This document shows, in pieces, positions 2,049 through 50,800 of a DNA stretch of 64,000 bases. The DNA comes from Tubulanus polymorphus (lineage: Eukaryota; Animalia; Nemertea). Under the pieces are notes generated by a model, which saw only the letters and a list, made by a program, of their open reading frames with translations, had not been told where the DNA came from and did not search any database. Every line of letters starts with the position of its first letter. Position 1 is the first letter of the stretch. The DNA lies in the NCBI RefSeq assembly GCF_964204645.1, contig NC_134027.1, positions 18,872,560-18,936,559 of the forward strand, given 5' to 3'. The position numbers and the translations under genes were made by a program.

Positions 2049-2174
2049 GCGCTGTCCACTGGCTGAATAGCAAAGTACACGTCACTCAATCGCTCTTGTC
2101 TTTTTTTTTTATTTTGCAGGTCATGGAATTTTAAATGTCGTGGTTGTCGGGACAGTTTTCGGTCTGAAGAAAAC

Positions 2175-2903
2175 GGGTACTTCTAAAGTACGAAACTACG
2201 AAATTAAGAAATATGAAACGAAATTACGAAATGCTAAAGTACGAAACGAAATACTATACGAAATGCTAAACTACGAAACGAAATGGTCATTTTTTCGCGG
2301 GTCCTGCTAAAGTATAAAATGTAATACGAAACGAAAATTTTGTAATTTTTTGCGCTATAGCAGCGGATTCGTGGAGCTGGCTTAAACATGCTCACCCGGT
2401 CTAGTGTGGCAGGGTTCCGTGCCGCGACTGAGGTTAGCGATCCCATCAGGGAGAATGATCTGCGCATGCTCATATACAACTAGAAGGTAGCGATTAATAA
2501 TTTACGGGTTAGAGAATGAAGTGTGCCTTAAAATATATCCTCCAGTGTTTAGGCTAAAAAATTGATACCTCGTTTCTCCTCTGCTGAGGAGCTTAAAAGT
2601 TGAACCGACCGGCCGCTAATCTACCCTGTACATAAATTTTTTCTGAGCTAAATGATCGATACTAGACAGGTTCAGATATGTCGGCCCGTGTCCAAGAACG
2701 GGATAATCCTGTACAATGTAACTTTCTTGTGGTAGAGCACGATATAGCGTTATAACGAGCTTTGACCATAGTATGGGCGTGTGTTTGAAATGTGACTATT
2801 TTGTTTCGTATTTCGGTTCGTATTTTAGCACTACTGGCAAAAAATTTCCATTTCGTAATTTTGTAGTTTCGTAATTTCGTAATTTCGTACTTTAGCAGGA
2901 CCC
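2175..2903. mobile_element. Non-autonomous Mutator/foldback-type element with 9-bp TSD
   Basis: TSD GAAGAAAAC at 2166-2174 and 2904-2912. TIRs GGGTACTTCTAAAGTACGAAA / reverse complement GGGTCCTGCTAAAGTACGAAA, with tandem (T)ACGAAA subrepeats. An internal TIR-like copy starts at 2299. Confidence 0.88.
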
Positions 2904-3004
2904 GAAGAAAACCTCAAAGTCATGAGCAAAAGTGCGAAGCAGTGACGCACGATGGCGTTAAATACAAATGTAAGAAGTGCGGTCGAGTCAGCGACCGAGG
3001 CGAC

Positions 3005-5867
3005 CGGAACGGCCCACTAGTCCGGGTGTCCACTAGTCCGCGGGGCCACTAGTCCGCGGGTCCACTAGTCCGCGGGTCCATTAGTCCGCGGGTCCATTAG
3101 TCCGCGGGTCATTTATCCTTGTCAATATTTTCAATCCACGCCCGATAGGCCACGCAAAATTGATTTCTTGGTTCTCATTATTTATAAAATGTACCCTCCT
3201 CACTTTCCTGAAATTTAGATAAAAAAGTTTGAACTGGTTCATATTCAAATAAAAAGACTCCTCCCCGTGGTGTCAATGTCGAAAAGTGGAGTCTATACTA
3301 AAATATTAAAAAAGACTAGCCCTCCCTCGTCAACTTTTTTCAATGTCTCTGATGAGAACCAAGCAATTAATTTTGTATGGCTCAAGGCCATATTTTATAT
3401 AACTTATAAGGAAAGTCGCCTATTGGCCATACGGTGTCTCTGGATGTCTCGATCCTATCGTGGGAAAGTGGCCTGTAATAATTTCTCACTCAGTAGTATT
3501 GTAACACCCGGCATAAACTGATGAACAATGGCTCAGCGACCACGATTAATATGCGGAGCTCATGGAAGGGGCAAAGTCTTAATTTACGAGGGATTCAAAT
3601 ATCAGTACAATAAGAAACAGAGAGAAACTATGTTGTGGCGATGCTGGAGATCCGAGTGCCGGTCAAATATAAAAACCAATATATTTGATCGCCAGCAAGA
3701 TAATGCAAATATCCAAGTCATCGGACGGCCCGACGCTCATACCCACGGAACAGATGAATTAATAATCGAAAAAGGTGAATTTTCTAACGCAGTGAAAACT
3801 ACAATACGTAACGATCCAACAAAACCAGTCAAAAGGGTATATGACGAAGAAGCTGTACGTATACGCCGAGGCCAGGGTGGTGGAGACCGTGAGATTCCCT
3901 CATTTCCTTCATTGCGATCTGCTATGAAGCGCACAAAAACTCGAAATATGCCTCCCATACCGCATGACATTGAAGACGTTAACGTTGCTGGTGCATGGGC
4001 CACTGCCTGGAATGACCGTTTTCTACTGCACCAGGATAATGATTGGGGCATTTTAATGCTTGCATCTGACCGTAATTTGCGAGTACTGAGAGCGTGCAAA
4101 ACATTATACATGGATGGAACTTTTCGAACGGCACCACGACCATATGTACAAGTTTTTACTGTACTTGGCGATTACCATGGGCGAGTATTGCCCCTTGTTA
4201 TCGCACTAATGGTAAATCGGGAAATTGGCCATTATCGCCAGATTCTACAGGTTCTGAAGCGCGAAGTAAGAAGAATAAGGAACCATAGGTGGCGCCCAAG
4301 GTTGGTCGTTTGTGATTTCGAACTTGCACTGATTACAGCCGTGGAAACGGAACTACCCAGAGCTAATGTCGGCGGTTGTTACTTCCATTTCAACCAAGCT
4401 ATATGGCGCCGTATCAAGACTCTTGGTCTTGTCAGACCGTATAGAGAAAGAAACACATATCGGAAGATAGTGCGGAAGGTGATGTCAATCGGATTCTTGC
4501 CTGTTGCGTTAGTCCGAAATAACTTTCGTTTGCTTCAAAATAGAAATTCAACTGCAAGAATGATTAGACGGTATCCTGCATTAAATGACTTCTTGTTCTA
4601 TGTAGAGAATACGTACATACAGGGTCAATTTCCAATTCGACTGTGGAACGTTTACGAAAGAAACATGTCCTGTCGCACAAACAATAATGCTGAAGGTTTG
4701 TGGCTTTTTTTAAATAAAATTATGAAACTAAGCTACCCCAGGGTTCTCTGATAAAATAAATTTCCAGGATCGATTTCCAATCTTTTGGGAATGTACGATA
4801 GCTGGTCCCATAACTTCAATAATTATTCCGACTACCATATTCGCTGGGTAGGTAGTGCGGGGTGTGATCTTGGCTAGAAACTTATAGATTTTCTTTTTGT
4901 TGGCAGTCATGGCAAATTTCCTGAACCCATATAAAATATAGCTCAGCAAACGTGCCCAGTTTCAAAAACCATATATTCATTATCTATAGTATTTTCAGCG
5001 TTTCACAGGTCCTGGAATGACAGAGTAGAGGTGAGACACCCGAATTTATGGATTTTCATTCGACATTTGAAAGATCTGCAGGTCCAGATAACTGAAAGCA
5101 TTTCCCAGATGAATCGAGGCGGGCAACCGACTGTTCGCCGTCGTAAATGGCGTAACCTCGAAAATCGCCTGCGCCGCCTTAAAACGGAATACGAGAATGG
5201 AGACAGAGACGTAGATACTACCGGAGGGCTGTTTCTCATGCGGTTGTTGACTTCTGAAGTAATATTGATGTGACACTTTCATGTTGTTTGTTAGTTCTAT
5301 ACCGGTAGTTGATTTTTGTGAAAGACTTCGGAAGCAATCAAATTTGTCTCATGGTAGTTCTATACCAGTAATTGATTTTTGTGACAGACTTTGTCTCATA
5401 TAGTTTTTGTTTTGGTGTACATTTTGCACCGTTTTTTGTCTTTTTATTCAATTTATCTAAGATCGAAGACGTTTTTTATGCGAGAATTATCCATCCAAAT
5501 AATTTGTATGATAGGCAGACGTTTGTATAGGCAGACGTTTGTCTATCTTAACTTTTTAATTTTTATCATGGCTGAATCAGCAGTGTTTCTAATAAAAAAA
5601 ACTCATTCCTTAGAATATTTACTCGTCTACTTTGCATAAAGTGTCAAGTTCTACCTATAGACGATCTAATTTTCTATTAAATCACACTTTGCTAGAGGAG
5701 ATAATGGCTTCTATATACATTTTTCCGAATAAACGGAAATATAATATGAAATATGTAGAACCGTTGAGCTTGTCTACCTCTGATGTCTCTGGCCAGGCGG
5801 CGGACTAATGGACCCGCGGACTACTGGCCCCGCGGACTACTGGCCCCGCGGACTAGTGGACCGCTCC
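3005..5867 (+). mobile_element. Mutator-superfamily (Phantom-like) DNA transposon
   Basis: TSD CGAGGCGAC at 2996-3004 and 5868-5876. TIRs GGAACGGCCCACTAGTCC / GGAGCGGTCCACTAGTCC, built from tandem 16-bp CCACTAGTCCGCGGGT units. Encodes a MULE transposase. Confidence 0.93.
3528..5273 (+). CDS. FLYWCH-MULE transposase, 2 exons (3528-4695, 4999-5273), about 480 aa
   Basis: FLYWCH-like LIYEGFKY..WRC..C..HTH. DDE motifs YMDGTF, VVCDFE, TNNNAE, plus GCYFHFNQA. A GT..AG intron at 4696-4998 restores TNNNAEAFHRSWN..HPNLWIF. Confidence 0.9.
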
Positions 5868-6561
5868 CGAGGCGACACGCTACGACGCCACGCCAGACGT
5901 TACCACGGTACATCACAGTGTGTTGTTGAAATTACAGAGGAAGGGTGGGACACGCCACCAGAAGTTAGTGTCGAATACGCAGGGGATAAGAGGAAGGTGG
6001 AGTTTGTGGGAGCAGTACAGGAGGAGAAGAGAAGAAAGACGAAGGACGAGACGGAGAAAGAAGAGAAAATGAAAGAAGGAATGGTTGAGAACAGGAAAGA
6101 AGGGTAACGCGTGGGAAAGTCGAACGGCTCGACTACGGCAGCTGGTGGAACTACGGACACTACGCCAACTGCAACGGATGAAACAACCCCCAACGACGCA
6201 TCGTGCGACCCGGAGACTGAAAGAAAGGAGATGGTTGCCGTCAGCTCGGGAGAAGTCTGTTCGAGAAGAGTAGTAACGACAAGAAGCAAAAACAGTTAGT
6301 GGAGAGGAGTCTGGAGCTCAATCGGCGAGCACGAGAGAGAGACGAGTTTGAGATGAAAAAGAGAGCGGAGGAGGTGCGGAAGGCCGAGATTGAACAACGA
6401 AGGAAAACAGAAGAGGAAGCGAAGGAGAAGAGGGAGTTAGAGAGAAAGAAGTTGGAGGAGAAGCGGAGGGCAGAAATACAACGGTGGTTGTTGGTGAAGG
6501 GAGAGAATGAGCCGGAGAGCGCACCGGTGTACTCGCCGGAAATACTCGGAGTAATAGGGAA

Positions 6562-7795
6562 ACTCACACTTTTTAAATATTCATATTTAAAAAGTGTGAG
6601 TAAAGTGTTAGCATAATAATCTAGAATAATAAGATCAAATATAGATTTCGAATAATAAAAAATTAATTTTCAATATAAAAAGTGTGAGTAAAGTGTGAGT
6701 AAAGTGCGAGCATAAAATGTGTGAGAAAAAGTAACGAGTAATTAACGAGTTGTTGGAATTAAAATCAAATTCAAAATCGAAATAAAAGAAACCAATAAAC
6801 TATTTTCACAGTTTAACATTAAAAATTATATCTCAGCAACAAATTTAGTGTCCGCAAGACATTATAAAACTGATAACATTACTTTGATTAATCAAATATC
6901 ATCAAATGAAACATATTTAATTACTGAACTAATTGATACTTTTGATAATGGTGTTAAAAATCCTAAAGTATTCAATACAGTTTTAAATTTTAAAGAAACT
7001 TTAGATGAAAACATAATAAATATTCTTAAAACTCCTTTCAATGAAAGAAAAAGTTATATAATGCTCGCTAAAGATTACAATGATTTGATTAACTTAAGAA
7101 TTGAAAAAAGACAATAATTATATTATTTCAATTTTGATAATAAAAAAATCATCTATAATGAAAATTCATCAAATATTGGTATTCAATGTGAATTAGATAA
7201 TGAAAAATCATTCAAAGATGTTGCAGTTCAATGTAATTTAGATGATGAATTTAGAAAATTCAATCCTAATGAAAAAGTGTATTGTTATTGTGGTGGCAAA
7301 TATTTAGGATCACATAAATCAAAACATTATCAAACAGTTTAACATATCAATTATGAAAAGAATAATAATTCTATATTGAAATAAGATTAAGCTGTATGAG
7401 TAATTGGAAAATTTCAAATATCATCACTCAAAAATAATAATTCAACTCTAAATATTCATATTCAAAATAAGATATTTCAAATTACTTTTAATTTTTTTCT
7501 TTAAATAAATGGATGATTTCAGCATTCCAACTGGGAAAAGTGATTTGAAGCATTATTTAGTAGCAGGAGGATTAATTTTGGCTGCGCTTTTCTTTTACTA
7601 TGAAAATATTAGTAAGGATTTGATGAATGAAAATATAAAATTGAGCAAGAAATTAAAGAAGTTAAATGGAAACAATCACAGAAAGAATAACAATAAAAAA
7701 GTTAATGATTTAAAAGAATTAGAGGATTAAAACAGCACCTTTTAATTTAATTTATTCTATATATTTCAACTATCAATGTATTAAATACGTATTCA
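6562..7795 (+). other. Very AT-rich Polinton/Maverick- or DNA-virus-like fragment
   Basis: Abrupt switch from about 50% GC Gypsy DNA to extremely AT-rich DNA. Stop-interrupted N/K/I-rich frame 6848-7384 with EKVYCYCGGKYLGSHKSKHYQTV*H. Intronless small ORF behind TAAATAAATG. The origin is inferred, not demonstrated. Confidence 0.5.
7509..7730 (+). CDS. Small predicted single-pass membrane protein (73 aa) inside the AT-rich insert
   Basis: Hydrophobic YLVAGGLILAALFFYY followed by a K/N-rich coiled segment. ATG lies in a TAAATAAATG context. Confidence 0.4.
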   Translation: MDDFSIPTGKSDLKHYLVAGGLILAALFFYYENISKDLMNENIKLSKKLKKLNGNNHRKNNNKKVNDLKELED

Positions 7796-7796
7796 A

Positions 7797-8135
7797 TCCG
7801 TACAATTCCCAAGACCGAGTATGGCTATACCAGCCCAAGCTTTTGGACGGAAACCCCAGTCGCAAACTTCAACTGAATTGGACTGAACCTTTTACAGTGA
7901 CAAAACGCTTTTCAGACGCACTGTATGAGATTCAAGACCGACCTGGTCAAAACCGGCCAAGCTGGTGCACCTTGACCGTTTGAAACCGTACCTAGGCGTC
8001 ATCAGGCCCTTCGTATCGCTACGCCGGAAGAGGAGAGAACCGGCGACCAGGAGCCCGAGGCAACCTCTAGTACACTGAGACGACAGAGTAGACGGGCTCG
8101 CCCTAAAACCCGATGTCCTGAATTTCACTATGTAG
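7797..8135 (+). pseudogene. Second, diverged Gypsy integrase C-terminal fragment
   Basis: PYNSQDRVWLYQP..RKLQLNWTEPFTVTKRFSDALYEIQ..LVHLDRLKPYLGV, collinear with about 1720-1915 of copy 1. Confidence 0.85.
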
Positions 8136-8215
8136 ACGATACCAACCCGGGAACGACTATGTTATATCCTTACCATCCCATCATAATCGACACAAAATCT
8201 TATTTTGTCTTTTAG

Positions 8216-9450
8216 GTCTCTGCATAAATGTCGAGGTTGCCGTTACGAATACAAGAACCGAGACAGCCTCAGAAGACACGAGGAAGGGTGCGAATCGCTG
8301 GCGCACGATGGCATCGTGTTCCGATGCGAAGAATGCGGAACCTTTGGATCTTGTGGAGACACCGTCAAGCGTCACGCCAGGCGAGCCCACGGTTCCTCGA
8401 AATGCGTCTCCCGATTGGTAATGGAGAAATGGGACAACCCGCCGGACGTCACTATTCTAGATCCGATCCCGAAGCGGAGGTCAGTCGTCGGCGATGTGGA
8501 TGAGAAGCAGAGACGGAAAGTGGTTGTAAGGGATGACGAGAAAGAATAGAAGCCGGAAAAAGAAGAGAAGCCGCGTGTGGAGGAGGTCGAGTCGTCCTCG
8601 GGAGCGTCAGGAGACGGAAATCGAAGAAGACGAGCTGACGATAGTAGAAAAATTGGAAGAGAGAGCAGGAGACCAGGTGGTGAAACCAGCAGAGAAGGAA
8701 GAGAATGAGAAAGAAACGGATGCGGAGATCGGCTTAATGGGAAATACAAACGGGAAAAAAAGGTTCGAACAGAGAAGGAGAGTTCTTGCAAAGTAAAGCG
8801 AAGCTTGGAACTATCAAGATGTGCCCGCGAAAAAGATTCAGCCTAGGCCAAGGAAAAAGCTAAGGAGGCATCAAGGCAGTTAGGAGGTGGATTGAGGCAG
8901 AAGAGGAGGTAAAGAGAGGAAAGGAGAGGAAACGTTTAGAGGGGAAGAGGAAGCCGGAGTTGGACTAGCTGGAGAAAAAGAGAGAGGGAGAGGAGAAAGA
9001 GAACGATGTCACCCCATATTCACCCGAAGATCTGGGGGCGCAGTATCAGAATTGGTGGGAAAATTTAACACTAACATATGTACCTACCGCCTTACCGAAG
9101 GCGAGCCAACCAGAGATCGCACAGCCTAACGTTTTGGACTCAGACGAACCATGTCCAGTGAAAGAGGCCCGACGCCTTCCAACCTCGCGGCGGGTGTTAG
9201 CACATGTACATCCAACCATTCACCGTCGTCCAGCAACGTTCCGCGAAATTCCGCGAGTTCCAGCCGAATGTCCGTTCTGTGTAAAGATGGCACGCACTCT
9301 GCCGGAATAGTTTGGTCGCCGCCGGTCAGGAAGTCGTCAGAACCGTTCGGGGAAGTCCATGTACACCCACTGGAGACGGGTGACATGCGTGTATTTGGTT
9401 TTGATGATGCCCCTGTAGACTGCGTCGCCTGTTTGATCGCAGAACACTAA
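8216..9450 (+). pseudogene. Gypsy copy 2 accessory 3' ORF (2x zinc finger, coiled coil, PYSPE, 2x HVHP..CxxC)
   Basis: Acceptor TATTTTGTCTTTTAG|G at 8201-8215. HKCRGCRYEYKNRDSLRRHEEGC..FRCEECGTFGSCGDTVKRHARRAH..WDNPPDV, then an E/K-rich stretch with stops and frameshifts, TPYSPE, HVHP-x18-CPFC and HVHP-x17-CVAC. Confidence 0.8.
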
Positions 9451-9511
9451 GAAGATCGAAGATCGCGAGAAGACCGAAGATTTAAATTTCAGGCGGGGGT
9501 GCGTGAAAGCT

Positions 9512-9523
9512 GGGAGGGGGGGA
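9512..9523 (+). promoter_or_regulatory. Polypurine tract of the Gypsy element
   Basis: G-rich purine run immediately before TGTAGTG. Confidence 0.7.
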
Positions 9524-12041
9524 TGTAGTGAAAATTTCCGGTTTCGCAAAAATTTTCAATCACCTTTCTTCCGGATTTCACCGCCCCACTATTTCTATTA
9601 TCTATTTTTAAGACTGTTTGGAATATAGCTGTACATTTTATTAGATCCGGAGCGACCGGTTCTGCTGTTTAACCCGTTTTGGTTGATGTTCCGGCTGCGG
9701 CTCCATTATTTCCGGGTTTCCTGAATACTATTAACCCCTTTCTTAATTGTATTGAATATTATTTTATCATCCTTGTCACGCGCGTAGGGTTGGAATCCCC
9801 TATAACTCCATTACTTCGGGAATTCTTATATGTCTAATTTGTTTAGTATCGTCTACGTTACCTTAGTCGGTGATGTTATTATTTATCTCCATTCGCGTGT
9901 CCGTGGTGACCTTTTTAGCCGGCGTGCGGTTGCCCGGTCCCGCTCTCATTGTTGCTGGAATCAAGCCAACTGTGAAATCATGTGACACGCGCGGCCAATC
10001 ACGCGTGTTCGGACTTGTGTTCCAGCTAATGAAAGCGGTTCCCGGACAGCCGCGGGCTATTTAAGGTGCGCTGTGCGTGAGTTCGGGGAGAAAGCCCTTG
10101 CGCTCGTCCGCGGAACTTAAAAAGTCGCTCTGCAGTGCTAGCATGTAACCGCTCTAGACACGATCCAAGATTTAAAAATGTAAGAACCTAATCGTTTTGC
10201 CGGGTGTCCGTGCCAGGACAGTCGTTCGATTCACCAATAATCTTAGTGTCTGATGTACCACATTTTAATTATATGTTATATCGTCATTCCCGGGAAACAG
10301 TTGCGGTCGTTATTTCTCGGACCGCCGGTTTTTGTGTAACATGTTCGTTCCCAGACAGCAAGTGCCAGTTTATTGTATATGTTCATTCTCGAGCTCAAAA
10401 ATAATCATTAATACTCATTTCAAACGACTGTAGTTCTAACGTTGAGGTCAGCGGAGGTCCTGCCCGCTCTAGGAGGTCAGCTTGCGCATCGTATGAATTC
10501 CGGACGGTGGGGGGTTCAACATGCTACCAAGAATAAGACGATAAAGAGGAGAGGAACTTCGCCCAGCCGTATTACTCGCCTTCAAGTGAAGGACGAGCGG
10601 ACCCACTGACGAAGAAACCCGCGTAGACATGAGGACTCGCATCTTCACTCGTCAAGGGATTTGAACCCACTACGCTAAAGCTGTTCCCCGAACCCCTTGA
10701 CCTCACGAGTCGTTACTAGCTGACCAGAATCCGGTCGTACCAATCACAGCGCTTGTAACAAACCGTCAGTAGACTTCTGTTGGTTTTCCCGTTAAATTGA
10801 CCAATCAGCGAACGTTTTACCGAACAAGGAAGTATTTCGCAAATCGATATATGACGTCATGCGCAACAGCGCCAGTAATGAAATCACGCTTCGTGAGGCC
10901 AGGGGGCTGGTGGAAGCGAGTTCGGGAGTGATACCGGACCCCTGGCAAGCGAGGATGAAGAAATTAATGCATTAGGCCTACTCGCATGCCATAGTAGGAT
11001 TATCACTGTGCGCGCTAACTTAACCGTTAAGTGCTGCCCCCAATGCGTCGCGGTTGACGATAACATGCCACAGTACATCTTCACTCGTCAAGATTCGAAC
11101 CCACTACGCTAAAGCTGTTCCCCGAGCCCCTTGACCTCACGAGTCGTTGGAGTCGTTACTAGCCGACCAGAATCCGGTCGTACCAATCACAGCGCTTGTA
11201 ACAAACCGTCAGTAGACTTCTGTTGGTTTTCCCGTTAAATTGACCAATCAGCGAACGTTTTACCGAACAAGGAAGTATTTCGCAAATCGATATATGACGT
11301 CATGCGCAACAGCGCCAGTAATGAAATCACGCTTCGTGAGGCCAGGGGGCTGGTGGAAGCGAGTTCGGGAGTGATACCGGACCCCTGGCAAGCGAGGATG
11401 AAGAAATTAATGCATTCGGCCTACTCGCATGCCATAGTAGGATTATCACTGTGCGCGCTAACTTAACCGTTAAGTGCTGCCCCCAATGCGTCGCGGTTGA
11501 CGATAACATGCCACAGTACATCTTCACCCGTCAAGATTCGAACCCACTACGCTAAAGCTGTTCCCCGAACCCCTTGACCTCACGAGTCGTTGGAGTCGTT
11601 ACTAGCCGACCAGAATCCGGTCGTACCAATCACAGCGCTTGTAACAAACCGTCAGTAGACTTCTGTTGGTTTTCCCGTTAAATTGACCAATCAGCGAACG
11701 TTTTACCGAACAAGGAAGTATTTCGCAAATCGATATATGACGTCACGCGCAACAGCGCCAGTAATGAAATCACGCTTCGTGAGGCCAGGGGGCTGGTGGA
11801 AGCGAGCTCGGGAGTGATACCAGATCCCTGGCAAGCGAGGATGGAGGACTCGGTCCGGGACCGAGTGGTCGGAGCCTCCAAGACATGTTTGTTATTATTG
11901 AACGTCGTACCGTGACGCCGGGCGTACGGAGGCCTACCGGTGCAGACACAGCTGCAGGAGTTGTCTGTTCTGATGAGTATTTTATTAGCGATTTTGACCG
12001 GGGTGTCAAATGGTTACCCGGTGTCTGGGAAATCCGTTACA
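9524..12041 (+). mobile_element. Probable 3' LTR (TGT...ACA), enlarged by an internal tandem triplication
   Basis: Starts TGTAGTG after the PPT. TATA-like TATTTAAG at about 10058. Candidate end CCGTTACA at 12041. The right boundary is uncertain and no partner LTR is in the window. Confidence 0.55.
10640..11843 (+). repeat. Tandem repeat, about 2.7 copies of a 436-443 bp unit
   Basis: CATCTTCACTCGTCAAG-like unit starts at 10640, 11076 and 11519. Copies are nearly identical, giving identical spurious ORFs 10884-11084 and 11327-11527. Confidence 0.95.
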
Positions 12042-27800: not shown

Positions 27801-30800
27801 ATGGCCAATATGACGCGTGTCGATGTCATGTGAAATACTTCTCATGACTCTTGGTTGATGATTTCTGAATTCATATATGAATCATTTCGCTTTATGTCAC
27901 AAAAATACAAGGTGCCGTAGAGAATTCACAGAAATCTGTATCATGATAATGAATTGTAAGAATTGATCTAGATAATTTATAACAGAAAAGGGAGGTCTGG
28001 AAAAAGGAACTGGATAGAGTGATAGTCACTGATGGAAGCAGAGAGGAAGAGAGGTGAACTTGAAAGTGGGGAGGAAAGAGGATTGGAACATGGGAGGGGT
28101 AGGATTGAGGGTGATATGAGCATGAGAATGAGGAGAGAAAATGAATGTATATGAGAGGGGAGGTTCAAAAGCTGAATATGGGTAGGGGAGGTAATAAAGA
28201 TGTGAGAATGGAGGTTGAGAAATTAGATGAGATATTTCTACATACAGAATAGCAACCCCTGTAGTGTATACTTGAGAGTAAAAACTAGATAAATTGAAGC
28301 CATGTATAAATAGAAGGGAGAGAGAGACCAATAAACTATTCAATCAATCAATCACATTCTATTCAGTTTTATTACCAAGCCTTTTATTTGTATTATTACA
28401 TTTCCGTGAATTCACCGCAGAGAGGGAGATAGAGGGAGATACATGTAGTACAACGACTCTCGACACTCAGCTGCATGAGACTGCTGTCTAAAATTCATGT
28501 TTGATTATTTTGCAGTATGCCAACTAACTATATGAAACCGGAACCGCAGGATTTTTACCCGTGTGACACTCAACCATTAGGCACGTGTAATCCGGCAGTG
28601 CCATCTATATTAGCCCCAGATATTGGACAAACAGATAAACCCAACAGAAAAAGAGGCCGCAAAAAACCAACCATGTAAGTCAATGATATTGTAGGCCTTT
28701 AGGTCTTTGAGAATTTATTGATTGAATATTGTCCTTTTCTGCTAGTGCGAGAAATATGTGTAAATTGTAAATTATGCCATCAATTTGAACAGTAAGCGCC
28801 ACCTTTCTAACTGATATTTTGTCAATCACCTTTCGATATTGTTTCGATTGTTTCTTGTCCAAAAATATTTTTGGTATTGGTTGAAATTCCACTCACGAAT
28901 GGAACAATTAGGCCTATGTATGAAAGAGCTCTCTTTGTTTCACAAGATACAGCCGACCATGATGAAGTCGTCACTATTATTGAATAGGCCTATAACTGGT
29001 TCAATTTACTGAATATAAAGCCAAGTTCTCACGACCAAATTTTGGTGAGCGTTCACACAGCGTTTTGACAGGCGTTGATAAAATGGCTTGTCACCGGGCC
29101 CACAAGATGTCGCCATCTGCTAAATAATTCATTGGGCCTGGATGAAGTCTTGCTTCCAGAATCCAAGTATAGCAGGACATTCTTGATTCTTGACCATTCT
29201 TGACCAAGTCGATCCCCTGTCAGGTTTAGACGTTTTTGTGAATTCGATTTTGTTCTATCACGAGGAAAGTCTAGTGTCGTTTAAACACGATTCAAAACAC
29301 GGAAGAAAACATATGATGATCGTGACATACGAATTACACTCCAAACATTTCCATAGTATAGGAAGGATAGGGAGGAAAAACAGTAGTTAAAAATAATTAC
29401 ATAAACGGTAATAAAAGCATTTAAAAGTTGATAAACTGGACTCACACTCTACCGCAGAGGTTTCGACATCTACCATAGGGTAGCGTCCAAAAATTACGTA
29501 CCTCTTATTGGGAGGGGGGGTTACTGAATTTTGGTACAAAGTGGTACATGGGGGGAGGGGTCAGCAAAAAAGGTACGTACTTTGAGGAGGGCGTATTAGT
29601 CAATCTTGGTACGCACTTTATGCACCCAAACCCGAATGAAAATAGCCGATACTGGTGTTTTATCAGCTTTGAGTGACTTGTTCAAGTGACTTGTAGTAGA
29701 CTTCAACTGGGAATTCCCCATACCAGGTACCGGTATCGATCTTTCACACAGTTGGAATCAGGTATTTATGTTTTTTATATTTTGTTTTGATTTGTGTTCT
29801 TTGCATCAATATAATTGGGGGGGGTGGTGGTCATGGGTACCATGGTAAGTTCCTATGAAGGGGGTCAGTGAATTTGGTACAAAGGTGGTACAAGGGGGGA
29901 GGGGGAATCAGAACAACGGGAGATTTTGAGGTACGTAATAACTGGACGCTCCCTAGAGATTCAGAACTACGATTTAGACCGGACCCGGTACCAGTTTCTG
30001 TCCACACACATAGATTTAGACCAGTCCAAAATTTGGACCGGACCTGGTTCGCTCTTTTAGACCGTTAAACAGTATTTTTGTCCGTGTGAACGCTTGGTCC
30101 GGTCTAAATTGGACCGGACCAAATTTAGACCTGTCTTAATTCCGTTGTGTGAACGCGCCTTAAGTCATCGGATGGTCAACATGATCGTCCTAACTATGAT
30201 GACTTAAGCGAGTTTGACTTTCAATTTTTCTGTAGTCAGGGTTTGTATTAATGTATGTATGTATGAAATCTCTATCAAATGTATCCTCTCAAAACCTGTC
30301 GAATTCGAACCGATCAATATTGATGCATTGTTGATCGTTAATTAATTTTCTGTGTTTCATTACACAGAGATAATGGAATTGTCCCGGATACAAAAGTGCC
30401 AAAAATAAAACAGGAAAAAGTTACAAATACTCTACCTGTGCGAAAAAAGCGTGATCGATTCAATGGCATGCCTGAGGATGAGGTTGCGCGAAGAATACTC
30501 CCGGATCATCTTAAACCGGGATTAGATATAGTTATAGTAAGTATTGTTATACCGGGATTCCATGTTCAACTTCCTCACAAAGAACTAATATTGAATGACT
30601 TAAATATCCGACCTCATTATAAAATCGACTCTATTCACGACAATACCATTCATTCCTTGCCATCTCACTTTTCATTGAATTATTCTTACCGGAAGTACTT
30701 TCTCGTCATTTTGCTACCATACAAAAATCTACCCTATGTAAGCAATCGTTAAGTAAATGTCCCTTAGGTTAAACCTTGTAGTAATCATTGAACGATTAGT

Positions 30801-33800
30801 CCAAGATTAAACCTATTAATTCAATATCATCTCCACACATAATCATTCGCCTGAAAACCAAGTGTGAAATTTAAGACCTATTTCAATGAAATAACCCTGA
30901 TTGCTATAATTGTAGAATTTTTCGTTGAGGTTGCCATATCATATTGTAGTGTTGAATTTTTGTTTCTTTTGCTAATGTTGCGCAGCCTTTGGCCCTTGCA
31001 TGGCCTGTATATTGTTATATCATTAATTCTTTGTATGATATATTAATAATGTTCAATGCAAATAAGATTTATTGGATTTTATTGTATTGTTAAGGCAATG
31101 ATCATTATTATAGGCCTATGCCAATAGACCGCTATATTGTGCTGCACTGGACCAGAATTCTTAAATATTAGAATTCATTTATATGATATTTCGGTTAATA
31201 GGTATACAGTTACGTCACATTTACAACTGAAATTTTTGTCTCTTTATTTACTGGTTATCATGATTTACTTTTAGGTTGGTATTAATCCAGGTTTGATGGC
31301 AGCTTACGTCGGACACCATTACGCAGGTCCTGGTAATCATTTCTGTAAGTATCCGCTTTAGAATTATGACTTGACGACATATGGCCCTATTGTGAAGTCA
31401 TAATCATTATCATCCTCAAAAGATGTATTAAAGTGCCTTTTTCATCGGTAGCATCCTCCCTCAGTGGGAATTCAAATCTTGCATTCACAGCTTAGTTGAT
31501 GTCATTATGAGCCAATCAGAAATCACGTTTATCTTGGTCTGGGTTTTTCCAAGCTATAGTAATCCATGAAATTTGCCTCAACAGTTATTCAACAACAGGC
31601 AATCTGATTGGCGCCACATGGTAGTGTACTCGGGCTAGTCAGGCAGGGCTTCGTGCCGTGGCTGAGTCGAGCAATGCCATTGGTTCAAATCACTGCCGAG
31701 GGATGATGTACCGGTATTAATGGTAGGAACTATTTGCGAATAGTTTCTACTCATCTTGAGCAACCCCATGATAAATTTTGAAAATTCAGTGTGAAAAATG
31801 AGTAGTTGGCCATGCCTATGTATTTTGATAATCAACTATCAAATCGTTGTCTGACCTTTTTTCATCATATTTCTCTTGAAGGGAAATGCTTATATTTAAG
31901 TGGATTGATTCTGGAACCAATGACTGCGTATGATGATTATAAACTGTTAGATTATGGAATTGGTTTTACAAATATCGTCGCTCGGACAACCAGGGGTAGT
32001 GCTGATTTGACTCGGTAAGTGTGTGTGGGACAGGGTAAGGGGAGACACAGGGAACTGTATCCTACTGCGGCGAGTGAATGTCCCATCTATAGTTGCATTC
32101 AGTACAGTTTGTGTGATTTTATATTTGTAGAGATCAACATTACCGGCTGACCAGGTACGAAACGTCGCTGATGTTATTTCATTATCATATTGTTCTCTTG
32201 CTATGTTATTTACTCTTATCTCCGACAGCTGCTTTTTGTATTATTATTCACTCTTCGATTAATGAAAAATATATCGTAGTTTTATAACCCCAGTGGACGC
32301 ATGGCTAAGTGTTAAGCTTTAGTCTAGTACTGAATGCATCTGTAGGTGGAATTTGCAACAAAACACCAAAGAAAAATTCCTCCACACTCTATGTTCCTCT
32401 GCATAGACTTTGTCGTAGTATCCTCCCTTAATACTTTAAGAAAGACATATCAATGTTGATGATATACGCTAGTCCTGGATTGAGATTTAAATGGTTGGCT
32501 TAATTGAAAGAATAATCTGAATTTATGTACAAAAACTTAATCATCTTTCGATACATTATGTTTTAGGACCTGTGGTCGGCTTCATACTAATAATTTCAGG
32601 CAATTGCATTGAACAGTAGAAAAGTCTTAGGCCTAATTACCCAATAAACTCTCATTTCGAGCAAAATCGAGGCCATTCTATTTTTTTATCCTAGTCCTAC
32701 GTGGAATATCTTTTACCGGTATTTAGCTGTTTACTCCGGTAGTTGTATCTTTAATGAATGTTGTAAATGTCTGACAAGGCTTTACTCCCTGCTGACCCAA
32801 CTCTCGTGATAGTCTTCTAATTTTCAATGGTGTTCATGTTGTTTGTAGGAAAGAGATTAAAGAAGGTGCCGAAATTTTGCAGGAAAAAATCAAAACATAT
32901 CAACCAAAAATTGCTGTATTCAATGGCAAAGGTACGAATGGTGAACTAATGACTTAGGTTTATGGATAATGATCCGGTCTTGATACTGTAGTTTCTGAAT
33001 TTCTTTTCAGGCATTTATGAAGTATTTTGCGGACACAAGAACTTCTACATCGGAAAACAGCCAGAAAAACTCCCAGGAACTAATACTGTAAGTGTTTCCA
33101 AGATGGCAGCACCTCTTCATGAAAAGTAAACCATGAGTAATATTCCGTTTATTTAATGAAGTTACTTACGATGTAGATGCATCTCTCTGCTTAAAAGCCC
33201 TTACGTCTAATAAAAGCATCAGGATCTCCCACGTGACATCACTGAACAACAACAGATAATACAAGGATTTACAACATTCAATAGTCTGCCTTGTACAGAC
33301 ATAGCACATGGCTGAAAGACCTCTATATAAATCACAGTCATCCTATGTGTTTCCTATTTTTAAAAAGTAACCATTGATGTTGTAGGTTGTATATGTGATG
33401 CCGTCGTCGAGCGCCAGATGTTCACAATTACCGCGAGCCATTGATAAAGTTCCGTTTTATGCTTCTTTAAAAAAATTGCGCGATCATCTCCGTGGTGACT
33501 TGCCCGACCTTGACGACTCGGAGGTGTGCTTCCCTGATCTTGAACTTAAAGTGAAAGTGAAAACGGAGAAGACCGAACCAGCCGACCAGCAGCAACAGGC
33601 AGCTTCTATGAATCCTCAAATTGTTCCTTACATAAAATCTGAACCAAACTTTGATCAATCTCCATACGGTATGATACCACAAAACCAGATGCAACCATTC
33701 CCACCACCAGGTGGCGCTCAATGCTGGAACGGTTCGAGTAGTTCAGCATTTAATATGCCATCGACAACCGGATTATTCAACAATGGATCATCACATGGTT

Positions 33801-34546
33801 ACAATAACAGCGCAACGGGTAGTGCAGTGAGAATCAAACAAGAAATACCAGATCCCGGGTACCCCCAATTTAGTAGCAACCCCGCGTCATTTACGAGCAA
33901 TAATACCGACTCAAATACACCGGCGTCGTCTAACTTCAATAATCAACACTCTCCAACGCTTAACGGTCATTCACCATCCAATAACAGCAATATGACATCA
34001 GCTGCATTCAACGGGCGACAAAAAACTAGTCCGAAAACATCACATAATCCAACTACTTATAACGGTAATAGTAGTAAACATCAATCAACAGCCGTCTCCT
34101 CCTCCGCCGCATCCTCTTCTTCAGTGTCATCGTTGTCTTCATCACCATCTCCTAAATCTCCCAAAACGACAACAACTAACAGTACTGTTGTCCCGAGTAC
34201 GACTACATCACCTGTTATGATCAAAGCGGAACCGGGTACATTCTCGCAAGGCTGTTCCGGTAATTTTAACAAACCTGATTCGTCAATATCCGCCGCTTCG
34301 TTTCCTCCTCATTTCATACCATCCCAGTATCAGTGTGGTATCCCGGGTTACCCGTCCCCGTATGGACAATTTCCCAGCTTCCCTGCGCAGAGTTATATGG
34401 GACAGATGTATCCTCCAGGGGGCCTCGGCGTGCAAGGTCAGCAGTTTGCAACATCGAGTCAATCCTTTTTGAGTAGTAATCCGACACAAGCTGGATTTTC
34501 TCGATTCCCTACATATCCCGGATATCCTCAAGGACCTCCCATGTAA
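21838..34546 (+). CDS. TDG: G/T mismatch-specific thymine DNA glycosylase, about 624 aa; coding exons 21838-21860, 28516-28674, 30368-30536, 31275-31344, 31882-32014, 32849-32931, 33011-33087, 33386-34546
   Basis: All introns are GT-AG and phase-compatible (1875 nt). Motifs DRFNG, LPD..LDIVIVGINPGLMAAY.GHHY.GPGNHFWKCL, GIGFTN, QPKIAVFNGK and YVMPSSSARC.Q.PRA.DKV match the TDG/MUG family. The first two coding exons are less certain. Confidence 0.93.
22277..22310 (+). repeat. Imperfect (CTG)n microsatellite in TDG intron
   Basis: ctgctgctgtgctgctgctgctgctgctgctgca. Confidence 0.85.
23958..24554 (+). mobile_element. hAT-like non-autonomous element with 6-bp direct repeat
   Basis: CACTCA|CAGACCTGC ... 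GCAGGTCTG|CACTCA. Internal acidic ORF remnant MASGVDDS..EGPAKK. Confidence 0.65.
25410..25810 (+). repeat. Pyrimidine-rich degenerate minisatellite
   Basis: Repeated CTATCCCATTCTCTCCCTCCATT-like units. Confidence 0.75.
29478..29953. mobile_element. MITE with GGG..CCC termini and TA duplication, possibly nested in a Harbinger-like MITE (about 29047-30159)
   Basis: TA|GGGTAGCGTCCAAAAATTACGTACCTC ... GAGGTACGTAATAACTGGACGCTCCC|TA. Flanking inverted motifs GCGTTCACAC / GTGTGAACGC. Confidence 0.7.
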
Positions 34547-44835: not shown

Positions 44836-47800
44836 TGACGACGATGCCATAGATGGGTTCGTCTGACGACGAAACCCATCAAAAACCAATGACCTTGAAA
44901 CCCACCACAATCATAGAACATGCCAGCAGCTATGATTTTGTAATTGATTGTGATAACAAAATATGCCTCGTTACCAATTTGATATGGAAATACTAAGTTA
45001 TTCTACTATCAATGCCCCCTGGTGACCATATGCAAAACTTAATGACCTTAAAAACTCACCACAATCGTAGTATATCATGAAATACAACTTTGCAATTGAT
45101 CATGGTAACAAAATATGCCTAGGTACCAATCTAATAAGGAAATACTAAGCTATTCTACTATTCAACGCCCCCTGGTGACTATATGGAATAACTAATTTCC
45201 TTAAAAACTCACCGCAATCATAGACGATGTCATGAACTACAACTTTGCAATTGATCATGGTAACAAAATATGCCTAGGTACCAATCTAATAAGGAAATAC
45301 TAAGTTATTCTACCATTCAACGCCCCCTGGTGACCATATAGAATAACTTATGTCCTTAAAACTCACCAAAATCAAGGAAGATGTCATGAGCTACAACTTT
45401 GCAATTGATTGTGGTAACAAAATATGCATAGGTACAAATAAAATATAGAAATACTAAGTTATTGTATTATTCAACGCCCCCTGGTGGCCACATACAAAAA
45501 CAAATGACCTTGAAACTCACCAAAATCATAGAACACGTTATGGGCTACAACTTTCCAATTGAATATAGTAACACAATATGCTTAGGTATCAATTTAATGT
45601 GGAAAAACTTTTTCCCACTTACGAATGAGTACTGATGACACCAAGATGGGCGCCAATTGCGTCATAATTGGCTGATCAAAAATACATCCCTTTCCAAAGA
45701 ATACCCATCACAAATTGCAATGAGAAATGGCAAACCAGTAGGAAGCTACAGGACCTAGAATTCTGGCTAAAATTGACATTTTTGGGCACTAAAAAGGTCA
45801 TAGGACGGCCATCTTGAGTCAGATCGACCCAATTTTTCTTAGGCTGATGGGCCCTTGGTAGATTCATATATAAATGAAAGATCAAGGTTATTAATCAAAG
45901 CGTCTTCAAAACTTCCCTCGTAAACTTCGAAAATGTGTAAAAAGTGCTGATTTTGGCGAACAACAATGGCTGCCAGTCGGCCATCTTGAATCTGACAGGG
46001 CCAGTTTTTGGGCTGAAGATGTGTCTAGGTTAGATACATGTATAAACCAAATATCAAGACATTACCTTGAAGCGTCTTCAAAACTTCCCAAAATAACTGG
46101 ATCCTGTCTACGGATGGACGGACGGACAAAAAGTGAACGGAATAGCCCGCTGGGACTAAAGTCCCAAGTGGACTAAAAAATCAATCTGAAATTTTACACC
46201 TTACTAATACAGCAGTAACAATCTCCAAATTGGCTTTTCAAGACACCGACATAACTGTGGCAGTCATCTTGGATGACCTACACACAACAAAAACAGTAGA
46301 GTTCATACTCCTTATGCCTTTAATCCACTTACCAAAAATCTGTATAAACCTGTAGACTATGAAACAGGAACAAGCTCCAAAATGGCTATTTCACATACCA
46401 ATATGTGGCCATCTTGGATGACCTAAGTTCTACTCGGATGATCTAAGTTCCAGCCATCTACTGTTTGATGCCAATAGTATATCTACTTGAAATACCATGC
46501 CAATAGTGAACTATAATGGCAGTCAATTGGCTAGATTGATCTAGATTCTGATCAATTATCAGGCTGCAAATGTTTCTAGGGTAGATATGTATATGTGCAA
46601 ACCAAATGTCAAGAGAATCCATCCGTATTAAAACATCCTTAAATAACTGGATTCCTTGAACAGATGAACCAATGGACAAAAAGTGAACGGAATAGCCCAC
46701 TGGGGCTATACCCCAAGTGGGTTGTAATACTCTACAATGCATGACATTGATGAGAAACAAGGCTATTTTCAAGTGACAGACCTCCTAATGTCATATCCTC
46801 TTGTTTTTCAATAACACTTAAATCAAACTGTTCCGCCATCGATTGAACTATTTCAGCACTGACGTGTGTTGGTAATGTGTGCTGCTCAGGTGGATGAGTA
46901 TAAAATGTGATCTTTCCTCTAAAAAAAATACAAAAAATCAAAGTTAATCACAACTGGCAGTTACATAAACGCGGGAATAGTCTATACTATGATGATGAAG
47001 TTATGTATTTGTAAAACTAGATAGTAAGCAAGCCCATATTTAACCAAGTTTGGGGCTGAAACTTTTCCCTACATTGCTTGTGAAAATTATGAAAAAATTT
47101 CATTGCAGTGTGGTTTCTAATGGACATATCGATCACTATATTGCATCTACTCCACAGTGCAGCATTAAACAAGACATACGTAGGGTTGAACTGCATCTAT
47201 CCCAAGGTGCGGTGTATTGTTAAAACCTAAAATTACACAACACCTGACTGGTGCTGCCATCTTCCAAATGAATACAAACTACCCGACAGGGACATATGCA
47301 ATATAGTCAGGTCGATAATACACTGCATAGCCAGGTGCATGTATTAAGCCAAGCCGATCCCTACATGAATCAACCGGCTAAATTGCTTAAAATGACCTTA
47401 TCTAAGACTGAAAACTCCAGGGATAAGTCACCATAAGCGGTAACTTCCATCAACCACTTTATCGAAACTCAATTTAAACATAAGATTCTTGCCAATTCCT
47501 CTCTCCAATGAGAATCAATAACCTGAGACTGAATTTGAACTTACGTGATCCAATCTTGTAATACTCGTTTAGCAGCTTTAACAGTGTCTGGAACGCCACC
47601 TTTACGCAGTAAACCGAACCGAATTGACATTAACTGTAAGAACTGAGTGACGTCGGTATAATCCTGTATTCTATAATGTAACATTATCTGTAAATATAAA
47701 CAGTAATTGAATAACCACTAGTTGTACGCCATTGGTCTTGCAAATCTGATGGTGGCTGAGTGTCTTTGACAATAGAGAAAGCTCAAGCCTACATACTTAA

Positions 47801-50800
47801 AATTATGCCCTCAATTGGTTGAATGATTAAAACAAGAGCACCAAGGGGCACTATGGCCAGCCGTCACATTCACTATTCATAAATGATGCAATATGTGGGT
47901 TTCATTTTTAAATATACACTCTCCGCTCAATATAATTTGCACCATAAAATTGGGTTTTACAAGTAGCAAGGACGGCAGAAAGGAACACTTCAGATCAATC
48001 TTCTCCCTTCGTCTATTGATTTGAATGTGGAATAAAATCGAATTGGATATGATGTAATTTTGTTCCAAAAATAAAATCTAATTGGATTTATCTTTGTTAC
48101 AGAAGTTTGAATTTCCGATTGGAGCAGATGGCTAATTAGCATATCAAGGTCATCCATCCAATTGGCAAAAAGCCGTTTTTCTTAAATGTTTCTTTTTTTA
48201 ACAAATCATAAAGGATGAATTTTGCGTAGTGCGAAGATTACTGCCAAAAACCAAATCAACTTAAGATTTCACTAAGATTTCATCCAAACTTGAAATTTTT
48301 GTCAGGAAAGAATGCTATAAATTTCTATAAAAGATAACGGATCATATCCAAGGCAACTGGGCACATTATGACTGTCCCTGTATTTATTGATTAATAATGA
48401 TAATAATAACTAAAACTACGCCTTGCGCCTACAATACCCCCCCCCCACAATTCTCTCCCCCACTTTGTAAGAATCAAAGTCGAACACAGACAAACCGGTC
48501 TTAACTGTCACATCAAGTTTCATGGATAATGATCAGATATTCCAGGCTGTATTGTGCTAAACAAGAAATCCAAGTTGGCTACCCCCCGGTGGCCATACTT
48601 GATGGCTGACCTCAATTTTCGATAGGGCTGAACATCTTACCCGACTCAGTCACTGAATTTTATAAAAATCCATCAAGAATTTTAGGCTGTATTGTGCAAA
48701 CTAGAAATTTAAGATGGCTGGCCTGGCAGCCATATTTGATGGCCAATAACCTTCATTTTCAATAGGGGAGGAAATCTCGAGTGCCCCAGTCCCCACCAGG
48801 GAGACATAATGAAATATGTTTCATTTACAAGTGATCTGAAGTTGTCACTTTTTCGTGTATGGAGCACCCCCTGTTGGCCACATGGAATATCATGTGACCT
48901 TGAAACTTTGCACAGGGGCTTAGCATTCCACTAACTACTTTAGAAGTTTATCTTTTTCATGTATTAAGTGTCCAAGAAAACAAATATCTTGGAATCCAAT
49001 TACAAAATAAAACGCACATGCACAACTACATATCCCGACAAACATATGTGTTACCGTAACGACGGATCACCTGACTCCAGTATACCCCCACTTCACTTCG
49101 TTGCGGGGGGAATTATAATTCCAATATAATCAAGGATGTTTGCATCCCATAAGTAGCTTAATTTTGGCAGGACCATTCCCTATTCCCCATTGAATTACTT
49201 TGTACTTATTTTGAAAACAAAGTAAGTAGCTATGTGTCATGGGCAAAACATAATCCAAATAATCACATGTAGGCTTTTTCGGTTGATTCCAAGAGGCATA
49301 TTTTTCGTACCTTTTCTTTTGAGCATCTCTTTAGTATTGCATCCACAGGAGTGGCTGGATCTTCTAAAGTTTCAATCTGTAATCAAAATGGTTTTTATAT
49401 AAAGTTTTGGTCTATAACTACTAGGGGTCCAGGGACAACATGGCCACTTGGGAAGTGGTTTTAAATGCTCAACAATCTAACAATTTCAATATTCAACACC
49501 CCGACCATATAGAAAAACCAATGACCTTCAAACCCACCACAATCATAGAACATGTCAGCAGCTATGATTTTGTTATTGATTATGTAAAATATGCCTCGTT
49601 ACCAATTCAATATGGAAATACCCCCTGGTGACCATATGCAAAACCCAATGACCTTGAAACTCTCCACAATCATAGAACATGTCATGAACTACAACTTTGC
49701 AATTGATCATGGTAACAAAATATGCCTAGGCACCAAGCCAATAAGGAAATACTAAGTTATTCTACTTTTCAACGCCCCCTGGTGACCATATAGAATAACA
49801 AATGTGCTTGAAACTCACAACTAGGGGTCCAGGGACACCATGCCCACTTGGGAAGTGGTTTCAAATGCTCAACAATCTAACAATTTCAACATTCAACGCC
49901 CCCTGGTGACCATTTACAAAAACCAATGACCTTGAAACTCACCACAATTATAGAACATGTCAGCAGCTACGATTTTGTAATCGATTGTGATAACAAAATA
50001 TGCCTCGTTACCAATTTAATATGGAAATACTAAGTCATTCTACTATTCAACGCCTCCTGGTGACCATATTCAAAACCCAATGACCTCGAAACTCACCACA
50101 ATCATAGAACATGTCATGAACTACAACTTTGCAATCGATCATGGTAAAAAAATATGCCAAGGTACCAATATAATAAGGAAATACTAAGTTATTCTACTAT
50201 TCAACACCCTCTGGTGACCATATAGAAAAACTTATGTCCTTAAAACTCGCAACAATCATAGATGATGTCATGAGCTACAACTTTCCAATGGATTGTGGTT
50301 ACAAAATATGCATAGGTACGAATATAATAAAGAAATGCTAAGATATTGTATTATTCAATGCCCCCTGGTGGCCATATACTAAATCCAATTACCTTGAAAC
50401 TCACCACAATCATAGAACATGTTATGAGCTACAACATTCTAATTGATTGTGGTAGCAAAATACGCTTAGGTATCAATATAATGTGGAAAAACTTTTTCCC
50501 ACTTACGAATGAGTACTGGTGACACCAAGATGGCCGCCAATTGCATTTTAATTGGCTGATGAAAAATACCTGTCTCAGGTATAAAACATCCCTTTCCAAA
50601 GAATACCTATCACAAATTGTAATGAGAAATGGCAAACCAATAGGAAGCTACAGGACTCAGAATTCGGGCCAAAATTAACATTTTTGGGCACTAAAAATGT
50701 CATAGGACGGCCATCTTGAGTCCGACGGACCCAATTTTTGTTATGTTGATGGGCCCTGGGGGGATTGACATATATCCAAAAGATCAAGGTACTTGATCGA

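Follow-up and report, generated by a model that had tools for sequence, protein, structure and literature searches.

A zinc-finger gene in the env position of two Gypsy retrotransposons from the nemertean Tubulanus polymorphus, probably expressed from a spliced RNA

The window analysed here is a stretch of 64,000 nucleotides of Tubulanus polymorphus DNA (assembly GCF_964204645.1, contig NC_134027.1, positions 18,872,560 to 18,936,559 of the forward strand; positions below are numbered within the window). It contains two diverged copies of a Ty3/Gypsy retrotransposon, each with a third open reading frame (ORF3) encoding a pair of zinc fingers. ORF3 lies between pol and the 3′ long terminal repeat (LTR), in the slot that env occupies in errantiviruses. 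It is very probably a real accessory gene, and the evidence supports a formerly selected, non-env third gene located between integrase and the polypurine tract (PPT), not a recent capture of a host exon. Judged from its sequence context, ORF3 is probably expressed from a spliced RNA. We place at about 0.4 the probability that its product, translated from such an RNA, binds DNA as a dimer and regulates the LTR of the element itself.

The third gene and its product

Copy 1 lies at the start of the window and, like copy 2, is read on the plus strand. The decayed 3′ part of its pol (1–2048, with Pfam matches to RT_RNaseH, Integrase_H2C2 and rve) runs from RNase H through the H2C2 finger, core and C-terminal module of the integrase to a stop codon at 2046–2048. 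The strand then passes through a 3′ splice site comprising a T tract and CAG|G (2095–2120), and ORF3 follows in three pieces separated by nested transposons. These are 2121–2174, with the CxxC that starts finger 1; 2904–3004, with the end of finger 1, the HDG linker and the start of finger 2; and 5868–6560, with the end of finger 2, WDTPPEV, an E/K/R-rich helix and PVYSPE. The frame is broken by stops or frameshifts just past the first insertion and at 6105, and runs to about 6560, where it gives way to AT-rich DNA.

Copy 2 is the shorter, beginning near 7790 in the integrase C-terminus. The integrase remnant and spacer (7790–8215; Pfam Integrase_p58_C, below the cut-off) are followed by a 3′ splice site ending in TAG|G (8195–8216), and in the region of the integrase end the DNA is 70% identical to copy 1 over 187 nt. 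ORF3 of copy 2 (8217–9450) is open to 8546, with stops and frameshifts at 8547 and beyond. Next come the PPT (9512–9523) and a TG...CA 3′ LTR (9524 to about 10521, right end tentative), across which read depth is unbroken. The LTR contains a TATA-like box at 10058–10064, the sole such match in 9500–10660. RNase H followed by integrase (H2C2, core and GPY/F-type C-terminus), with a PPT and LTR at the 3′ end, is the order of Ty3/Gypsy elements. No chromodomain (chromo) was found in a Pfam scan of the window pieces, and an Rfam scan of 5800–12000 gave no match. The first-pass annotation left out the LTR and the two additional C-terminal motifs of copy 2 described below.

In both copies ORF3 encodes CxxC-x12-HxxxC (C2HC) and then CxxC-x12-HxxxxH (C2H2), followed by WDxPP[DE]V (WDNPPDV in copy 2), long charged stretches (42–49% E/K/R in three pieces) and PxYSPE (P[VT]YSPE/TPYSPE; TPYSPE in copy 2), so the shared architecture described at first reading stands. 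Copy 2 has two further HVHP...CxxC (HxH...CxxC) motifs near its 3′ end, in a C-terminal piece that has no match in Pfam or the PDB. Finger 2 fits the classical C2H2 form, C-x2-C-x12-H-x3-5-H folding as strand-strand-helix, while finger 1 ends in cysteine. The Pfam family zf-C2H2_4 matches the fingers below its cut-off (E 8e-4). An AlphaFold model of the first open piece of copy 2 has two strand-strand-helix fingers with a mean predicted local distance difference test score (pLDDT) of 77.9, and the models overall comprise two classical fingers and disorder. The model of a relative's ORF3 product bears a weak structural likeness to DNA-binding C2H2 arrays; a Foldseek structure search returned nothing at E 0.001. 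Finger 2 of copy 1 has R(−1), D(2), T(3) and R(6), which we take to be a contact pattern of the Zif268 type; the D, T and R are retained in copy 2.

No membrane segment was found. The maximum 19-residue hydropathy is 1.15 among six pieces from the window and at most 0.95 among 16 relatives. Since no 19-residue stretch exceeds 1.15, ORF3 is not env; an env remnant was rejected on this ground, and the earlier statement that an env-type transmembrane segment is absent is upheld. In the springer subclade of errantiviruses env is likewise a third ORF behind pol, and its message is a spliced subgenomic RNA; it has a signal peptide, furin site and membrane anchor where ORF3 has zinc fingers and a charged helix (PMC12992720).

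The two ORF3 copies share 43–44% protein identity in three pieces, with a proportion of synonymous differences (pS) of 0.60–0.80; synonymous sites between them are at or near saturation. Genomic reads span the integrase end, ORF3 and the LTR without a gap, and the gene therefore travels with the element in several copies. Sibling copies carry 32 substitutions over 8150–8330, of which 21 fall in the coding part (8217–8330). These divide into 12 synonymous, 6 non-synonymous and 3 stops, against an expected synonymous share of 22–29% (p 0.0005–0.006, values that are rough because variants are linked within copies and include decay after insertion); in the other two frames the synonymous count is 2/21 and 3/21. 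Synonymous changes dominate among the siblings. Together with the protein identity retained at such high pS, this bears out the suggestion of past purifying selection.

The two insertions in copy 1 both end in inverted termini. The first (2175–2903, strand not assigned) is a non-autonomous DNA element whose 9-bp target duplication is seen at 2166–2174 and 2904–2912, and the second (3005–5867, plus strand) is a MULE DNA transposon with FLYWCH and MULE transposase domains, duplicated at 2996–3004 and 5868–5876. Two nested transposons had been recognised at the outset, with ends placed at 2912 and 5876; each of those ends includes one target duplicate. The MULE has 16-bp repeats inside its termini and an open frame of 408 codons, and a separate coding piece at 4935–5273 suggests an intron. 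The AT-rich DNA that ends copy 1 (6560–7790, 22% GC) starts with a 40-nt palindrome (6562–6601) and contains three short ORFs, one with a finger-like CxC...HKSKH. No Pfam match in this region is better than E 0.08; the stretch is possibly a fragment of another mobile or viral element.

Splicing and the start codon

The acceptor of copy 1 (2119/2120) and that of copy 2 (8215/8216) each consist of a pyrimidine tract and AG|G, with the finger frame opening at 2121 and 8217 respectively. By pyrimidine count 5 and 37, respectively, of the 1718 YAG sites on the plus strand of the window score as high. The intron phase is 2 in both, in agreement with the claim of same-phase splice sites behind pol. 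A short gap between pol and acceptor had also been claimed for both copies. This holds for copy 1, where the acceptor lies 70 nt after the stop codon, and is not clear for copy 2, in which one pol frame stays open up to the TAG of the acceptor. Read-through from pol into ORF3 within the window was rejected, as the frames differ.

Neither copy has an in-frame ATG before the fingers, as had been noted, and among the sibling copies no read has one between acceptor and fingers. Both copies begin with G followed by a serine codon, and a phase 2 acceptor requires that the upstream exon contribute two bases. A candidate for these two bases is found in the LTR of copy 2, where aaaAT|GTAAGA (10175–10185, cut at 10180) is the top-scoring donor among 44 GT sites downstream of the TATA-like box, about 120 nt from it; the 3′ LTR is taken here as a copy of the 5′ LTR, and the donor is seen in one 3′ LTR only. 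Unspliced, these bases read ATG-TAA. Joined to the acceptor, the AT of the donor and the G of the acceptor would create an ATG. On balance we lean slightly towards a start codon split across the splice junction. A precedent is provided by env of the springer errantiviruses, spliced from an upstream exon that gives only an AU dinucleotide (PMC12992720), as predicted here. A weaker second ATGTAA is located at 10143–10148 of the LTR, 35 nt upstream of the candidate donor.

The gene might instead once have had its own ATG right after the acceptor, the shared phase and the AT donor then being coincidences of decay. Most of the relatives described below have an ATG 2–11 nt past the acceptor, and in copy 1 an ATG, though out of frame, occurs at 2123, 3 nt past the acceptor there. 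Yet the siblings of copy 2 keep a non-ATG codon at this place, with synonymous variation, and the two copies share the G and serine codon at their start. We regard a lost ATG of this kind as unlikely. Splicing gains indirect support from the matching AT|GT donor in the LTR and from the acceptors that precede similar ORFs in the relatives.

Finger genes behind related integrases

Searches with the fingers themselves returned little. A word-based protein search with the finger piece found none among 77 candidates (0/77), a full HMMER scan gave 75 generic finger proteins, none of which has the tryptophan (W) motif, and an ESM Atlas search gave generic C2H2 or unnamed clusters. A protein search with the ORF3 alignment gave only three proteins. 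Viral contigs contained no match to fingers or integrase, the alignment query giving one distant locus. In a tblastn comparison of the ORF3 pieces with integrase-related loci there was no match at E 0.05 and none better than 0.2.

With the integrase as query, 105 loci were obtained at 32–62% identity, 53 of them with at least 1200 bases downstream. A finger pair follows the integrase in 11 of the 105 (9 of the 53, and 2 with shorter tails), a count that includes near-duplicates such as L036/L084, which were also too similar to be informative for the ratio of non-synonymous to synonymous rates (dN/dS). A further 7 loci have at least one finger there, and the reverse strands of the same 105 loci, taken as a control, have no finger pair and three single fingers. 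The named integrase neighbours are mostly bivalves, with a brittle star and a coral, and the top-scoring one is a pseudoscorpion. L081–L104 are animal-type Gypsy elements in contigs filed as bacterial genomes, likely through host contamination.

The slot behind pol is occupied across the group by finger pairs, finger-BTB, chromodomain-like or env-like products, or by nothing. In L088 (7326–9089) the ORF has fingers at its N-terminus, with no ATG before them, and at its C-terminus a BTB domain (Pfam BTB_2, E 7e-13). L017 (6818–9395) has two ORFs after pol, each behind an acceptor. The product of the second combines two C2H2 fingers and a long E/K/R helix with a pair of xQT motifs and with YSPTKPS, a sequence that we presume to resemble the RNA polymerase II repeat. 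LC8-type xQT motifs are found in the ORF3 products of L006, L008, L017, L023, L027, L031, L051 and P0198, at 9 in 3328 aa among the relatives compared with 0.06–0.18 per 1000 aa in controls. LC8 is a dimeriser and dimerises the piRNA silencing factor Panoramix via such motifs (PMC7919418).

The finger gene is separate from pol in L008, L023 and L031, and is in frame with it in L006, L019, L027 and L084 (10/91 Pol proteins). In free and fused forms alike an acceptor lies 2–11 nt before the ATG in 13/16 ORF starts, which were chosen by eye, compared with 10.6% of 1858 background ATGs; among six further starts four have an acceptor, both misses being ORFs without fingers. The RefSeq protein XP_033729814.1 of Pecten maximus is a separate 278-residue gene model starting at such a post-acceptor ATG, which at a near-identical locus is in frame with Pol. 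A donor is located at +74 to +79 from the TATA box in 4/7 LTRs of relatives that have a usable TATA, by a threshold fixed after the data were seen, and in 8.5% of background windows.

The fused forms suggest another function, that the finger module is an integration tether equivalent to a chromodomain, either fused to integrase or binding it in trans. The place of the module at the integrase C-terminus in the four fused loci and the 10/91 Pol proteins is as this would require, and L015, L068 and L098 have at the same place what we take from its motif to be a chromodomain-like tail. The gene in the window, however, stands apart from pol and has no ATG of its own, and the fused versions elsewhere keep the acceptor and internal ATG, an indication that selection acted on the free protein. 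We consider a tether rather unlikely. The chromodomain of chromoviruses is a chromatin-type module at the integrase C-terminus, the place to which the finger module is fused in some relatives; it differs in its fold and in that the finger module is mostly a gene with its own acceptor (PMC2774666).

In L001, L019, L024 and L084 the fingers are followed by W-[DQ]-x-x-P-[DE]-I, matching WDxPP[DE]V of the window, a motif that occurs in 0/75 of the generic finger proteins; the order C2HC then C2H2 occurs in 3/75. ORF3 of the window fits the order of the L001/L006/L019/L084 family, which is C2HC, C2H2 and then W-[DE]-x-x-P-[DE]-[IV]. It has no counterpart of the relatives' own post-acceptor ATG, RKPTxP or xQT motif. 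The ORF3 genes of the window and the finger genes of the relatives likely have a common origin.

These comparisons also bear on the neutral alternative, a captured host zinc-finger exon carried as a passenger. HDG conservation had been remarked upon at first reading. The motif is present, but the linker H[DE]G-xx-[FY]-x-C occurs in 49/75 generic multi-finger matches, and HDG was therefore rejected as a family marker. Its frequency in host-type proteins makes a cellular origin of the fingers plausible. Against a neutral passenger stand purifying selection within and between families, recurrence across integrase lineages, and the lack of a close cellular homologue in the word-based and full HMMER searches. 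The synonymous excess largely refutes this alternative, which is very improbable, and the earlier view that ORF3 is not a recently captured exon is sustained by the selection and by the similar genes behind the integrases of relatives.

Possible function and wider meaning

The protein plausibly has a nuclear, nucleic-acid-binding role, as far as sequence can tell. Among specific functions a dimeric DNA-binding regulator of the LTR is preferred because of the classical fingers, the presumed Zif268-type pattern, the charged helix, and the LC8 and BTB modules of the relatives. Transcription would begin in the 5′ LTR. Splicing from the AT|GTAAG donor, which lies about 120 nt beyond the TATA box, to the AG|G acceptor would take out gag-pol and produce the ATG. 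The two fingers would bind a short DNA site, with the charged helix dimerising or spacing them, and the protein would promote or protect expression of the full-length RNA, as retroviral transactivators do.

A number of observations weigh against this reading. The donor motif is not a rare one, ATGTRAG arising in 6.4% of shuffles, or 1.6% with A at −3, and it was found in a single 3′ LTR, the 5′ LTR, PBS, gag, protease and RT all lying outside the window. The acceptor G is missing in one sibling copy and the acceptor is weaker in another. Three of the seven LTRs of relatives lack a donor, and in two others no TATA could be used, in addition to the threshold and the choice of start codons mentioned above. 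Scored with the profile of the relatives, the window reaches 25 bits, less than generic finger proteins (up to 39.7), and the case for homology therefore depends on position and the W motif. Integrase trees place the window outside the relatives' clade, which has 98% support, weakly near L017 and L029, both with other finger ORFs. These are quick trees, one made without loci whose integrase match is shorter than 125 residues and the second from 47/105 hand-picked loci; forcing the window into the relatives' clade was not rejected (approximately unbiased test, p 0.37). The charged helix gave no significant alignment with that of L017. Neither copy in the window has an LC8 motif. RNA and protein are also among the ligands of C2H2 and C2HC fingers, and no binding site of the ORF3 fingers was identified.

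An RNA-binding function could take the form of a factor like Rev or CERV, which would bind the unspliced genomic RNA and export it from the nucleus. An element whose gag-pol lies between a strong donor and a strong acceptor must export intron-containing RNA, and ORF3 has Arg/Lys-rich stretches. In Caenorhabditis elegans the Gypsy element Cer1 does so by means of CERV, a multimeric nuclear accessory protein that has a Cys finger and coiled coil and is translated from a spliced RNA; its gene has three exons shared with gag, the protein contains H/M/G domains with a C4 loop, and RNA export has been shown (PMC10309623). ORF3 would be a single 3′ exon with C2HC and C2H2 fingers and bears no likeness to the H/M/G architecture. 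Identity with CERV was rejected on the basis of predicted models, which have two classical strand-strand-helix fingers and disorder. An export function is doubtful, and the DNA-binding regulator is preferred to it.

Elsewhere in the window, a 443-bp unit is repeated about three times in tandem over 10640–11900, with very high read depth at its start, and blocks of 154-bp tandem units recur over 44900–59500. By motif, exons at 30342–34546 (plus strand) presumably encode a thymine-DNA glycosylase and those at 51563–57685 (minus strand) a nucleostemin-type GTPase.

Accessory ORF3s are already known as a kind (PMC5408684, PMC10309623). The non-env ORF3s of bdelloid LTR elements are similarly lineage-specific, lie in the env slot and are said to use spliced messages. 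They encode GDSL esterases, DEDDy exonucleases, coiled-coil or membrane proteins, and neither 'zinc' nor 'finger' appears in the text of that paper (PMC5408684). The MDG1-group sORF1 and sORF2 are likewise accessory ORFs of env-less Metaviridae, sORF1 being predicted to be helix-turn-helix; they are short, mostly upstream of gag and unspliced, and sORF2 is a membrane fusogen (PMC11952523). The literature searched does not describe a zinc-finger ORF3 for animal Gypsy elements, with Repbase, GyDB and supplements outside its scope, and to that extent the earlier statement that this is not a described family holds. The terms looked up gave no match to this gene in PMC6238403, PMC8556966, PMC13524379 (main text without 'zinc'), PMC6431247, PMC6338049, PMC2836005, PMC13228809 or PMC4276936. 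Prior annotation in Repbase, GyDB or supplements is possible.

We tentatively suggest that a broad and old Gypsy group of marine invertebrates may comprise 'complex' retrotransposons that encode, in the env slot, a zinc-finger transcription factor of their own, activated by splicing (which here would make the start codon) and fused to integrase in some lineages. Animal LTR retrotransposons are usually seen as gag-pol elements with or without env. Few regulatory proteins of LTR elements are known, CERV being the tested case in the literature searched. The recurrence of a zinc-finger gene that has splice signals of its own would make nuclear regulators encoded by the element a common feature of one Gypsy branch. 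Some orphan gene models labelled 'uncharacterized zinc-finger', XP_033729814.1 among them, would turn out to belong to elements, and one could test directly how an element maintains expression of its unspliced RNA when the host silences it. If the suggestion is true, these retrotransposons have a counterpart of the retroviral transactivators, and the job of the chromodomain has been solved in a second way.

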